IMG/VR virus record: IMGVR_UViG_3300022666_000111
Source: a virus
Taxonomy: Duplodnaviria; Caudoviricetes
Direction: 5' to 3' (one strand)
Length of the DNA: 64,000 bases
In this document: positions 6,864 through 45,581 of the stretch, one piece after another
Position numbering within the stretch: the first letter of the stretch is position 1
Layout of the letters: each line of letters starts with the position of its first letter
Notes under the pieces: model-generated
Seen by the model: the letters and a program-made list of their open reading frames with translations, nothing else
Told to the model about the DNA's origin: nothing
Databases searched by the model: none
Position numbers and translations under genes: made by a program

Positions 6864-7274
6864 TTAGCTCTCGTCGTCGTCCTCTCGAAGTCGGTCCAAC
6901 CATGATTGACCCTCTGGTGCTGGTGTGGCTTCCTTGCGCTTACGGCCCCGACGTGCGGGCGCCGGAGGGGCCGCTGGGGCTTGGGGCTCTGGTGTTGCTA
7001 CGGTCGGGGGTGCTGGCGTTTGCGGGCGTTGCTGGTGCTCAGCTAGACGCCTGACTCTGCCTTGAAGATCCTCAATGGCTTCAGCTTGCGCACGAAGACG
7101 GGTGCGTACCATATCCAGGACGTCTTCAGACAGGTTGGAAGTCTCGTGCCGGATCATCCATGTCATGTAGTAACGCCAGGCCCGCCAGATCAAAATGAGC
7201 GCAAGCGAGAGAAGCATGGCGGCGACCCGCCAGTCACGGATGATGTAGGTCGAGACTTTCTCAAACCACGTCAT
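6864..7274 (-). CDS. membrane-anchored coiled-coil protein with acidic C-terminal tag
   Basis: One TM helix, Pro-rich linker, ends SWLDRLREDDDES. Confidence 0.6.
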   Translation of the reverse strand: MTWFEKVSTYIIRDWRVAAMLLSLALILIWRAWRYYMTWMIRHETSNLSEDVLDMVRTRLRAQAEAIEDLQGRVRRLAEHQQRPQTPAPPTVATPEPQAPAAPPAPARRGRKRKEATPAPEGQSWLDRLREDDDES

Positions 7275-7971
7275 TGGGGTCTATGTCCCAGGCTGGACGT
7301 GCGGGTTGCTGTTCAAAAGCCTTGATGGGGGCGTAGCTACGGCGGTGGATCGGGCAGGGGCCGAGCTTGCGCAGCGCCTCCTCGTGGACTTTGGTGCCGT
7401 ATCCCTTGTGCTTCTCGAATCCGTAGCCGGGGTAGTCTTGAGCAAAGCGGGCCATCTCCCGATCACGGTAGACCTTGGCGATGACGCTTGCCAAGGTGAT
7501 GGCAGGGACGATCTGGTCACCTTTGGGGAGGCAGAAGACTTGGGGGTTGTGCTCTGGATCCAGGTTGGGGTTGATGCTCCCATCCACGATCACGATGGGG
7601 TTCACCGGGAGGCGGTGGAACGTCCCCTGGATCGCAAGGCGATGAGCCAAGCGTAGGGCCGCTGAAGCCCCGAGGCGGTCAATCTCCTCGGGGGGCATGA
7701 CGTAGGGGCTGATGACGATGCTATCGTTTGGCTTGAGCCAATAGCGGTCAAAGATACGCTCCCGTTCGGTCTCGGTGAGCATCTTGGAGTCACGCCAAGG
7801 GTTGCCTGGGCCACGGTTTCGGAATTCAGGATCGGTGGGTTCCCAATCACAAGAGACGGCGACCGCGCAGGTGAGGAGGGGGCCAGCCCAGGCCCCGTAG
7901 CCAGCCTCGTCGCTTCCGACAATCGGGGTGGCCCTTGCAGTATCGATGGTGGGGATGCCTGTCTTGAGCAT
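7261..7971 (-). CDS. rnhB: ribonuclease HII
   Basis: GSDEAGYG, DSK, IVDG, PKGD, ASVIAKVYRD, YPGYGFEKHKGYGT. Confidence 0.93.
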   Translation of the reverse strand: MLKTGIPTIDTARATPIVGSDEAGYGAWAGPLLTCAVAVSCDWEPTDPEFRNRGPGNPWRDSKMLTETERERIFDRYWLKPNDSIVISPYVMPPEEIDRLGASAALRLAHRLAIQGTFHRLPVNPIVIVDGSINPNLDPEHNPQVFCLPKGDQIVPAITLASVIAKVYRDREMARFAQDYPGYGFEKHKGYGTKVHEEALRKLGPCPIHRRSYAPIKAFEQQPARPAWDIDPNDVV

Positions 7972-7979
7972 GATGCCAT

Positions 7980-8369
7980 CTACACCAGATTAGCCGTGTC
8001 GCACAACCCTCGAAGCTGGATTTCAGCGGTATGTAGCGCAGCTTTGTAGACCTGCATCTGCCAGGAGTTGAGCCGCACGCCACGGACCGGAACGAAGAGG
8101 GCCTTCTTGAGCTTGACGCCATCCATCAGACGCCCACCGGGGTAAGTCACCTTGCAGAGTTCGAGGGGATCAACAACAAGCTGACCAAGCACGACGTGGG
8201 CGGCGGAGTCAGCCCCCATGCGACCGTCGTCACAATAGTGTCCAGGGCATGTTGCGACGTCAGCCAGGATGGCCTTGGCGGACCAGAGGACCGTGAGGTG
8301 GTGCATGACAGCACCGGGGAGGTTGTTGAGCGTTTTACCAATGACACTGGAAGTCGTGTGTTGAACCAT
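7980..8369 (-). CDS. hypothetical protein
   Basis: GGTGTAG 9 nt before start; its own Val-stop forms the rnhB promoter core. Confidence 0.6.
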   Translation of the reverse strand: MVQHTTSSVIGKTLNNLPGAVMHHLTVLWSAKAILADVATCPGHYCDDGRMGADSAAHVVLGQLVVDPLELCKVTYPGGRLMDGVKLKKALFVPVRGVRLNSWQMQVYKAALHTAEIQLRGLCDTANLV

Positions 8370-8378
8370 GCCTCAAAG

Positions 8379-43555: not shown

Positions 43556-43882
43556 ATGGACTTCGATGATGATTGGGAAGCACTGCGTGAAAGCTCCTAC
43601 CCTGACTTTGTAGGCGAGCGTGGCCCATACGGTGAAGGGCATGTCTTCTCTATCCAGGATGGTATCAAGACCGAGATTCCACCGCCTGAATTCGGCTTTG
43701 ACTGGGGCAAGCCCAGCATGGGCGCAACCTACCTCACGACCGTCATCCTCCAAAGGGTGTTGGGTCCGGGAAAGGTAAGCGAGCTGCACGGCATCTTTCG
43801 TTTGGTCGTGCATGGGCTGCCTGAGAATTCTTGGAGGATTACGCGCAAGGACGTGCTGGAGGCGCTTGACGGGCTAATCTAG
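43556..43882 (+). CDS. DUF6166-like protein
   Basis: GFDWG...GA..L; LP..SW.I. Confidence 0.5.
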   Translation: MDFDDDWEALRESSYPDFVGERGPYGEGHVFSIQDGIKTEIPPPEFGFDWGKPSMGATYLTTVILQRVLGPGKVSELHGIFRLVVHGLPENSWRITRKDVLEALDGLI

Positions 43883-44161
43883 GCGACGAAGGACATCCAT
43901 GAGAATCCCGTCGCAGAGCCCCATGTTGCCACAATCGTGTTGGACGGAGAATCTGTCACAGGAGAGGTCAACGGAGATGCGTATCTCGTAGACCTCACGC
44001 TCTACGGCGGGGTTCGGGTCCTTGCCCGAGCCGATCTGGGAGTGAAGGAAGTCCGTGATAAGCTCGCCCCGAACCTCGGGCTTCACGTTGGTACGCGCCT
44101 CGTCCCAAGTGAATGACCCGTCCTTCATGTCGTACCGCAGAGTCATTACGAGATCGCTCAT
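43874..44161 (-). CDS. hypothetical protein
   Basis: Stop/start-coupled ORF. Confidence 0.55.
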   Translation of the reverse strand: MSDLVMTLRYDMKDGSFTWDEARTNVKPEVRGELITDFLHSQIGSGKDPNPAVEREVYEIRISVDLSCDRFSVQHDCGNMGLCDGILMDVLRRLD

Positions 44162-44454
44162 GAGGCACCTACCTTAATGGGGACAGGGGGTGTGACGTCG
44201 AAAGAGGTCGCCTTGCCGCAACACGGGCAGACCCAGGTGTAGATGCCCTCTTCCGGACTATCCGTGGAGGGGCGTATGTTGAGAGGGATGTCAGGCAAGC
44301 CGTAAGGGTTGACACTATCGTGGCGGCACGTGCAATAGACCAGAAACCCCTGCGTTCGGAGTGTCTCCTTGACCCGCCACCGTGCGTAGCGTCTGAGCCG
44401 CCACATCAGGTGCCAAAATTGGACCTTGTACCAAACAGCCTCGAGTATGCTCAT
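44158..44454 (-). CDS. Zn-ribbon hypothetical protein
   Basis: CTC...CPCCG; GGTGTAG 9 nt upstream. Confidence 0.55.
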   Translation of the reverse strand: MSILEAVWYKVQFWHLMWRLRRYARWRVKETLRTQGFLVYCTCRHDSVNPYGLPDIPLNIRPSTDSPEEGIYTWVCPCCGKATSFDVTPPVPIKVGAS

Positions 44455-44498
44455 GCCGTGTAGCTACACCGAATGGGATGGTGTAGTAGTGGGATCGT

Positions 44499-45581
44499 AT
44501 GCCAGATCCTGCTGATGCCATTGCTGACGCCATCGCCGAGGCTATCTCCGAGCTTGGGGGTGATCCGTCCACAGCTATCGTCACGGACTACCACGTGGAG
44601 TACCCTCCTGGGGGTCCCGTCGTTGTGGAAGCCCCCGTGGAGTACACCGAGACAAGGACTCTCCCAGAGCGGATCTTTTCGATCGGGAGCGAGCTTCCGA
44701 TCGAGCACATCCCGGGGAGGGCCACGGGGACCCTTCAGGTTCAAGGGACGCGGGTTGACTCGCAAGCCTTGGAGCGGCTTCTTGGGGCAGGTGAGCCCGG
44801 CATCCTCCGAGGGATGCCGCAGATCTTCAGCACGATCGATGATGAGGCACACTTCGGGGAGGCCATCCGTGAGGGGCTTGGTGTCAACGAGCCTCCGCCC
44901 AACCGCCCCGGGGAGCCTCCCGAGGGGGCCAACGCCAACGGGGACCTCCTCCCGATCACGTCGTTCACCCGGCAGCCATTGCCGTTGGAAGATCCTACCA
45001 CTGCGCAAATCCGTCGAGAGATCGAGGCGTCTGAGGACGCGGAGATCTTCCGGACCCTTGAAGCCGTGGCTCAAAACGGATTCGACCGTCCAAACTTCGG
45101 CATTGGTGCCAGGGTGCAGCAGATGGTCCGGGATATCGAGGACGCCCGCGTCAACCAGCTCCTGAGCAACATCGATGGGCCTACGCCGAGTTGGGTTGTG
45201 AACCCAGCGGATCCCAACGCCCGAGTGTCGCCGCCAATCCCGCCCCCAATCCGGGCCGAACGCGTCACCATGCCCTTGTTCGAAATAGCCTCCAACCCGT
45301 CGATCCCCCTCACGGCGATCCAGGCGAGGCGTTTCAACTTGATCGACCGTGAGCCTCCGAAGTTCGAGGTAGGTGAGTGGGTCACCTACACACACGGTGA
45401 GGGCTTCATCTACAAGGTCCTCGAGGTTGCTGAGAAGACCGTCACGGTTCAATGCTGGAACGAAGAGGTCTGGGACCTTGTGGGCTTGTTGGTGGTAGTG
45501 CCTCGAGAGGACTGCCACCACTCCCCGGCGCCCGTCAAGAACGTCTGGCAGCGCCTGATGGAAGAAGAGGACCTCTTCTAG
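44499..45581 (+). CDS. mosaic protein with capsid-like segments, SH3-like end and acidic tag
   Basis: EIEASEDAEIF; PLFEIASNPSIPL..IQARRFNLIDR; KFEVGEWV; WQRLMEEEDLF. Confidence 0.6.
   Translation: MPDPADAIADAIAEAISELGGDPSTAIVTDYHVEYPPGGPVVVEAPVEYTETRTLPERIFSIGSELPIEHIPGRATGTLQVQGTRVDSQALERLLGAGEPGILRGMPQIFSTIDDEAHFGEAIREGLGVNEPPPNRPGEPPEGANANGDLLPITSFTRQPLPLEDPTTAQIRREIEASEDAEIFRTLEAVAQNGFDRPNFGIGARVQQMVRDIEDARVNQLLSNIDGPTPSWVVNPADPNARVSPPIPPPIRAERVTMPLFEIASNPSIPLTAIQARRFNLIDREPPKFEVGEWVTYTHGEGFIYKVLEVAEKTVTVQCWNEEVWDLVGLLVVVPREDCHHSPAPVKNVWQRLMEEEDLF

Follow-up and report, generated by a model that had tools for sequence, protein, structure and literature searches.

Several described systems place a short docking peptide at the end of otherwise different proteins. 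The tail of the adaptor SspB, whose XB peptide binds the N-domain of ClpX, joins a variable folded binder to a short terminal docking peptide through a flexible linker. Encapsulin cargo-loading peptides and the capsid-targeting sequence of phage T4 are also terminal peptides carried on flexible linkers by unrelated proteins. The clamp epitopes of gp43, gp33 and gp55 from T4 and RB69 are hydrophobic-acidic C-terminal peptides on several proteins of one phage. The C-terminal tip of the single-stranded DNA-binding protein (SSB) reads D-D-D-(I/L)-P-F, and the bacterial clamp motif reads Q-L-[SD]-L-F. Peroxisomal targeting signals (PTS1 and PTS2, with Pex5 and Pex7 and the AAA proteins Pex1/6) offer an analogy only, that of a proteome-wide address label; no homologous receptor was found, none having been sought, and these phages have no known compartment. 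The 64,000-nucleotide stretch of the IMG/VR virus record IMGVR_UViG_3300022666_000111 (Duplodnaviria; Caudoviricetes), here called the window, encodes a comparable peptide tag, which an original prediction made from the DNA letters had described as a recurrent acidic C-terminal motif on unrelated proteins. The tag is an undescribed label used by a group of giant phages, and no published description of these peptides or of shared huge-phage tags was found in the open-access literature. It is likely to be a short linear tag for docking or addressing that is portable, read by a common partner and maintained by selection at the protein level.

All eight peptides originally quoted are present in the window, and each of the positions given for them is the stop-side end of an open reading frame (ORF). 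The window has a GC content of 59%, no tRNA genes and ∼111 closely packed genes according to our own codon-model gene call, in which the eight carrier ORFs all receive positive scores; three carriers are further backed by database proteins or homologues. Enrichment at C termini, on which the motif claim depended, is borne out. The strict pattern [WFY]D[RH][LI]x[DE] has 4 matches in the last 25 residues of the called proteins (18,508 residues altogether) and 0 elsewhere. Shuffling of whole proteins or of tails only gives an expectation of 0.02 to 0.03 matches, and 4 were reached in 0 of 1,000 shufflings. A wider pattern that covers all cases of the prediction, [STDN]x[WFYL][DQR][RHL][LI], shows 10 tail matches compared to 0.38 expected, and a control set of 834 ORFs from noncoding frames yields 1 tail match for the wider pattern and 0 for the strict one. 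About 1 in 12 genes of the window ends in the tag. The carriers are unrelated to each other, as had been claimed, with no pairwise BLASTP match at an E value of ≤0.01.

The tag opens with a helix N-cap (S/T/D/N), which is followed by a hydrophobic and then an aromatic (W/F/Y) residue; a free position, mostly D, comes next, then R or H and finally L or I. Acidic residues mostly come after this core, and three window carriers end in D-L-F. The tag is carried on a flexible linker 7 to 17 residues ahead of the C terminus, at a varying distance from the stop codon; the linkers ahead of most tags contain proline, in agreement with the prediction, and are often rich in it. The codons of the tag vary synonymously, with CGA, CGC, CGG and AGG for arginine, CTT, CTC, CTG, CTA and TTG for leucine, GAC and GAT for aspartate, and differing codons for phenylalanine as well. 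This indicates a constraint on the peptide and not on the DNA.

The eight carriers are spread over both strands. In carrier 1 (positions 6864 to 7274, minus strand; 136 amino acids [aa]), a hydrophobic segment at the N terminus is followed by a coiled-coil-like stretch, a linker rich in Pro and Ala, and the tag SWLDRL-REDDDES (core at 6888 to 6905). A similar layout of hydrophobic N-terminal segments, a helical stretch and a Pro-rich linker is found in carrier 3 (23706 to 24239, minus strand; 177 aa), which ends in TWYDRI-ADEEQE (core at 23727 to 23744). The claim that two carriers are membrane anchored agrees with the hydrophobic N-terminal 19-residue windows of two of the proteins, with Kyte-Doolittle values of 1.8 and 2.2. 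Carrier 2 (17036 to 17527, minus strand; 163 aa), with a Top1-type Zn-ribbon and a DUF3268 domain, bears the tag DAFDLL-EESD (core at 17072 to 17089). Although listed at first as a weaker case, it is a real carrier, whose orthologues end in NGWDRLL (NGWDRLLGGDSF) and NTRFDRVLEDD. Carrier 4 (30727 to 31149, minus strand; 93 to 140 aa, with an uncertain start) has two copies, TLFDHL (30826 to 30843) and TVFDHL-IEDSDDD (30757 to 30774), separated by a Pro-rich spacer. Carriers 5 (31204 to 31848, plus strand; 214 aa, or 198 aa in the database) and 7 (43093 to 43548, plus strand; 151 aa) are ORFans with the tags DVWRHL-EDDDLF (core at 31810 to 31827) and DVYDRL-RDGVDLLEDKA (core at 43495 to 43512), respectively.

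Carrier 6 (34644 to 35354, minus strand; 236 aa) and carrier 8 (44499 to 45581, plus strand; 360 aa) contain pieces resembling a capsid protein and are referred to below as capsid-mimic 1 and capsid-mimic 2. Their tags are TDYFDRLL-DEDLF (core at 34665 to 34682) and NVWQRL-MEEEDLF (core at 45540 to 45557). AlphaFold predicts carrier 6 as two small folded domains with a low-confidence middle and a low-pLDDT tail, in which a short helix (residues 224 to 231) coincides with the tag. A possible further carrier, a weak one, is the 95-aa protein encoded at 43874 to 44161 on the minus strand, with the end MDVLRRLD (core at 43880 to 43897) and leucine at the aromatic position. The 99-aa protein encoded at 35354 to 35653 (minus strand) ends in YRDGWDRIFGNK (YRDGWDRIFG) and was rejected as a carrier, as its orthologues keep this tail in phages with other tags. 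The tail of this family, Y-R-x-x-W-[DE]-x-I-F-G-x-K…G-x-A, is invariant in both subclades and thus family specific and merely tag-like.

Most carriers match no family in Pfam or PHROGs, and three of them have database matches that are only near-identical or consist of one homologue. The tagged proteins are functionally diverse, including a Zn-ribbon protein, coiled coils with membrane segments and ORFans in the window, an RlaP nucleotidyltransferase and a glucosaminidase among the relatives, and a GIY-YIG nuclease and a DUF4116 protein in a sister subclade.

The relationship of the window to larger genomes rests on a conserved 775-aa protein (47771 to 50098), whose relatives, with 45 to 61% identity, are encoded on 27 contigs of IMG/VR that reach lengths of 512 kb. 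These homologies place the window in a clade of huge uncultured phages with genomes of 300 to 500 kb. The 290-aa major capsid protein of the clade is 89 to 94% identical inside one subclade and ∼75% identical to that of the sister subclade. Seven related genomes (designated by G numbers) were compared whole, and all whole-genome tag counts given here come from such relatives. For this purpose, the C-terminal 20 residues of every protein were searched for 3-residue and gapped words, which were compared with the remaining proteome.

The spelling of the tag differs among the tag-rich relatives. The word RF.R is found in 56 of 739 tails of G001 (512 kb; P = 3e-59; consensus PTRFERIL), where about 40 to 56 proteins bear a PTRFERIL-type tag, in 22 of 490 tails of G002 (407 kb; P = 8e-19) and in 12 of 451 tails of G004 (363 kb; P = 5e-09). 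Beside PTRFERIL and LWDHL, [ST]RFxR[IV]L is the spelling elsewhere in the clade. The words LW.H and WDHL mark 32 to 39 of 624 tails of G006 (416 kb; P about 1e-50), a phage in which ∼44 mostly tiny proteins (median of 92 aa) end in [TND]-L-W-D-H-L plus 1 to 8 residues. This is nearly the spelling of the window (TLFDHL, TVFDHL and DVWRHL). The window tails share the core of the clade, namely, an N-cap, one variable residue and aromatic-x-[R/H]-[L/I/V] near the terminus on a linker. The motif of the window is a local dialect of a clade-wide tag. No tail word is significantly enriched in G010, a genome that is 68% complete, and only a few of its tails are tag-like. Typing of more genomes by a W-D-[RH]-L pattern in the DNA was given up, as the pattern was too noisy and only G006 stood out.

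The sister subclade uses a different tag, an unrelated [VI]M[ED]S-stop at the extreme C terminus, on up to 16% of its proteins. In G003, V-M-x-S occurs in 87 of 619 tails at the very C terminus (P = 9e-131), with 87 to 104 of 633 proteins tagged overall. At the DNA level, a pattern for [VI]-M-[DE]-S-stop has 94 matches in G003 compared to 0 in controls, and the serine is specified by TCN as well as AGY codons, which indicates a protein-level signal. G005 has tails in VQES, VMES or VHxS; G003, G005 and the contigs behind loci L006 and L008 are the users of [VI]M[ED]S-stop. In terms of the peroxisomal analogy, this tag would correspond to the C-terminal tripeptide type and the tag of the window to the helical nonapeptide type, as alternative codes. 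Across the clade phages, 3 to 16% of the proteins are tagged.

Comparison of orthologues shows the tail to be retained while the protein body diverges. Orthologues at 26 to 45% identity keep it, respelled in the dialect of their own phage, as can be seen in the Zn-ribbon and capsid-mimic 1 families. P0002, a homologue of carrier 6, is 39% identical to it, with a difference at only one position in the last 13 residues. The tails of more distant carrier 6 orthologues, from G001, G002 and G004, can be matched to one another in every column and read RTRFERILMDDD, ESRFSRILFDDD and, in truncated form, SRFDL; in this capsid-mimic 1 alignment, the orthologous tails are in register with RTRFERIL and ESRFSRIL. 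All seven homologues of carrier 8 (26 to 36% identity) keep a form of the tail, four with the end D-[VI]-W-x-R-L-L-x-[DE]-[DE]-[DE]-L-[FL] and three with shorter forms.

The position of the tag is also variable. G002 encodes two N-terminal copies and several internal copies within Pro-rich or acidic linkers. One of its proteins, encoded at 22256 to 22657 (L048), starts with M-T-T-R-F-D-R-I-L-G-D-D followed by a Pro-rich linker, both lacking in the G001 and G004 orthologues, and reads as a clear tag gain at the opposite terminus. In the case of the glucosaminidase, a tag is present in G002 and at locus L005, and the orthologues in the window and in G001 have no recognizable tag. Tags have been gained and lost and have moved to N termini and linkers. 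Together with the structural model, these features characterize a short linear motif that acquires its fold when it binds one partner. The reading as a portable docking tag is based on the protein-level conservation, the retention of the tail on diverging bodies, the gain, loss and movement of tags, and a spelling that is uniform per phage and different between phages.

One alternative needs no common reader at all and explains the tails by hidden shared ancestry, by a DNA element over the gene ends or by an autonomous self-association or condensate "sticker." Short amphipathic helices and acidic tails are indeed common, and the family encoded at 35354 to 35653 shows that similarly shaped, family-specific tails exist. 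Against this alternative stand the lack of any similarity outside the tag, the variable distance to the stop codon and the existence of N-terminal and internal copies, and a DNA element is at odds with the synonymous codon variation. The enrichment controls exclude an artifact or hidden paralogy. With enrichment at P values of 1e-50 or lower in relatives and one uniform spelling per genome, which points to a shared constraint, this explanation is very improbable.

In the proposed mechanism, the tag peptide would fold into an amphipathic helix of one to two turns on the binding groove of one common partner, which would collect, sort or remodel dozens of small, fast-evolving and unrelated phage proteins. 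Since each phage has one uniform spelling and related phages differ in theirs, this partner is more likely phage encoded and coevolving than a protein common to all hosts.

A host hub mimicked or targeted by the tag would be the opposite case. Such a hub might be found among the SSB-tip partners or FtsZ-tail binders, or it might be the sliding clamp or a degron or adaptor site of the ClpX/Lon type, with the dialects reflecting different hosts. The hosts probably differ, as the GC content of the relatives ranges from 41 to 69%, and the carriers seem to resemble early accessory genes. Three window tails end in [DE][DE]DLF, like the SSB tip and the end of the clamp motif. Closer comparison with these two peptides does not extend the likeness: D-L-F ends occur in 3 of 9 listed instances, but the glutamine of the clamp motif Q-L-[SD]-L-F is in register in none of the window tags, and the proline of the SSB tip is also missing. 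Terminal phenylalanine is found in the three window tails and is rare in the relatives, most of whose tails lack a terminal aromatic residue (e.g., ILMDDD and LWDHLKD). Unlike the clamp epitopes of T4 and RB69, the tag has no glutamine, its carriers are not replication or transcription proteins, and most tags of the clade do not end in L-F. Competition of 40 to 100 different proteins for one host site is implausible, and close relatives with 75 to 94% identical capsid proteins use wholly different tags. A host hub is accordingly quite improbable as the target.

A different role is suggested by the two most conserved carriers, both of which hold stretches of capsid protein. In carrier 6, a stretch of 33 to 41 aa shares 56 to 67% identity with the N-terminal part of the major capsid protein (290 aa), and residues 255 to 284 of carrier 8 are 73% identical to capsid-protein residues 88 to 117. 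Over the two conserved carrier families, the capsid-like stretches comprise residues about 5 to 77 in one and residues 88 to 140 and 249 to 293 in the other. Such proteins could be loaded into the capsid or prohead, with the tag docking the carriers on the inner shell or scaffold for packaging and ejection into the next host. Two small capsid-mimic proteins of G003 bear the VMES-type tag of that phage, the glucosaminidase is tagged in relatives, and carriers with a membrane segment and a coiled coil look like ejection proteins, which would fit this role. The architecture of a linker and a terminal peptide is also that of cargo-loading peptides in general.

The genomic arrangement argues against loading, since the tiny-gene arrays that hold the carriers are distant from the head module (at 126 to 180 kb in G006, compared to 13 kb for the capsid gene, and at 10 to 290 kb in G001, compared to 300 to 500 kb). 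Encapsulin cargo peptides and the T4 targeting sequence differ in the same respect, as the carriers described here are encoded away from shell or head genes; in addition, copies of the tag occur at either terminus and internally, and no processing site is evident. Up to 7 to 16% of all proteins would need to be packaged. The likeness of the tag to the capsid segment RRFDLIER is weak, and its derivation as a copy of this segment was dropped at -3.3 bits and rank 214 of 125,766 windows. The scaffold-like protein adjoining the capsid gene does not carry the tag either, having a conserved S-L-W tail of its own instead. Loading into the capsid is therefore unlikely to be the function of the tag.

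The capsid-mimic families themselves are represented by the window genes at 34644 to 35354 and 44499 to 45581 and in relatives by the regions 220848 to 223754 of G001 and 339812 to 343634 of G002. Their identity to the capsid pieces is 40 to 73%, one family resembling the N-terminal part and the other the spine-helix region plus the C-terminal strands. Both have extra domains, and most members are tagged. Interference with capsid assembly or chaperoning of it is a possible role of these proteins. The head gene with the S-L-W tail encodes a 389- to 479-aa scaffold- or protease-like protein two genes upstream of the capsid gene (e.g., G002, 131071 to 132348; G003, 349476 to 350789). Its C-terminal motif (LSSLWNSxPDV or LESLW[DE]RP) is shared by both subclades and is possibly the capsid-binding tail of a scaffold.

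Among the gene products of the window, the best candidate for the reader of the tag, though a tentative one, is the 391-aa single-ring AAA ATPase encoded at 56338 to 57513 on the plus strand, whose N-domain is Bcs1/YjoB-like and whose Walker B motif reads "IIED." The AAA family and the tag types were surveyed across 35 genomes; homologues of the ATPase were recovered by a profile scan, and a scan with the single ATPase sequence gave no matches. Members of the family occur in the window and in each of the six relatives that are clearly rich in the tag (G001, G002, G004, G006, G009 and G015), and the family is absent from all four VMES-tag genomes, two of which are complete. In G001, G002 and six other loci, a distance of 3 to 8 kb separates the AAA gene from the two tagged genes of the capsid-mimic families.

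In a structure search with the predicted model, only Bcs1 and Bacillus subtilis YjoB align across the N-domain and the AAA domain, from model residues 35 to 60 up to 373 (275 to 294 residues, Z values of 13.6 to 14.8 and identities of 16 to 21%). Other AAA proteins align only at model residues 148 to 375, about 200 residues, with tied Z values. The model thus gives moderate evidence for a putative Bcs1-type N-domain ahead of a single AAA domain. The Walker B sequence LIIEDAD, in the Glu-Asp order, is invariant in 13 homologues, and the "ED" Walker B has been named as a trait of YjoB and Bcs1 (PMC9565160). YjoB and Bcs1 are described as rings with an internal chamber, and small stable proteins are reported among the partners of YjoB, so that the likeness would be to chamber-type rings for small folded proteins (PMC9565160). 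Contrary to Bcs1, the phage ATPase has no N-terminal membrane helix; its residues 1 to 40 are not hydrophobic and have a low pLDDT, and no transmembrane anchor was found there, which resembles the soluble YjoB.

The carriers repeat the SspB order of a binder domain, a linker and a putative docking peptide at the end. Compared with SspB and ClpX, this candidate ATPase lacks the ClpX zinc-binding domain, and no protease partner was seen. The tag sequence also differs from that of SspB, and there are dozens of carriers compared to the few adaptors of that system. A virus-encoded sorting system can be imagined in which the chamber ATPase would recognize the mini-helix and so take up, retain or translocate small folded phage proteins by the dozen. 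Related phages would have recoded the label (PTRFERIL, LWDHL and the dialect of the window), and the sister clade would have replaced it with [VI]M[ED]S. This fuller scheme is rather doubtful; if true, it would give phages an equivalent of organelle targeting signals.

A second AAA subtype (L119, 5639 to 6835; L063, 14376 to 15593; L041, 5092 to 6291) ends in a 20- to 35-residue run of nearly pure Asp/Glu, and the subtype of the window ends in R-P-E-L-V-like residues. The idea that the tag is the tail of the partner of the phage actin was discarded, as the neighbor of volactin in five relatives has a basic end or the end H-[IV]-Y-L-L…D-P-W-K.

Several observations weigh against a docking tag with a common reader, or against the ATPase in that role. 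The original prediction proposed a docking motif for one hub, such as a protease adaptor, RNA polymerase or a phage compartment. Of this, the portable docking tag on unrelated and mostly small proteins is supported; for the hub, the one concrete lead is the AAA ATPase, on circumstantial evidence. As the hosts probably differ, the dialects could equally be accounted for by a reader of host origin. The acidic part may lie outside the core, the acidic run being often missing in the LWDHL phage. The co-occurrence of the AAA family with the tag amounts to one split between two subclades and is confounded by shared ancestry. By tag type, 81 gene clusters occur only with this tag, the same distribution as that of the AAA family, and 69 occur only with the other tag, too many to single out a reader. 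No covariation is visible between the AAA N-domain and the spelling, both AAA subtypes being found with the R-dialect. Several AAA neighborhoods, that of G006 included, are without tags, and no AAA gene was found in the 68% of G010 that is available, the genome with few tag-like tails.

Huge phages have hundreds of small proteins without an assigned function, and the presence of one recodable label on 3 to 16% of them means that many of these orphans probably work through one common machine. A tag peptide used as bait is a direct experimental handle for finding the machine that reads it, and the tag could serve as a portable handle for the engineering of phage proteins. Should the phage ATPase prove to be the reader, the tag and the ATPase would form a system for addressing proteins that is encoded by a virus, of a kind not described before.

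Other recognizable genes of the window encode a topoisomerase IB, an RNase HII, a GT51 transglycosylase, an M15 peptidase with a peptidoglycan-binding domain, an Acb1-like 2H phosphoesterase, an RCC1-repeat protein and a DUF4419 protein, in addition to the AAA ATPase. The Acb1-like phosphoesterase (24820 to 25380, plus strand) and a protein with a GmrSD N-terminal domain (9588 to 10100, minus strand) are possible counterdefense gene products. The RCC1-repeat protein, a 470-aa beta-propeller encoded at 46285 to 47697 on the minus strand, is a possible peptide-binding platform. Three tandem paralogues with 28 to 31% identity are encoded on the minus strand at 32084 to 32797, 32854 to 33639 and 33672 to 34442, with a partial fourth copy at the edge of the window (3 to 272, plus strand). 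They share a C-terminal amphipathic helix, D-x-L-L-x-W-[LI]-x-x-L-[LI], which is different from the tag.

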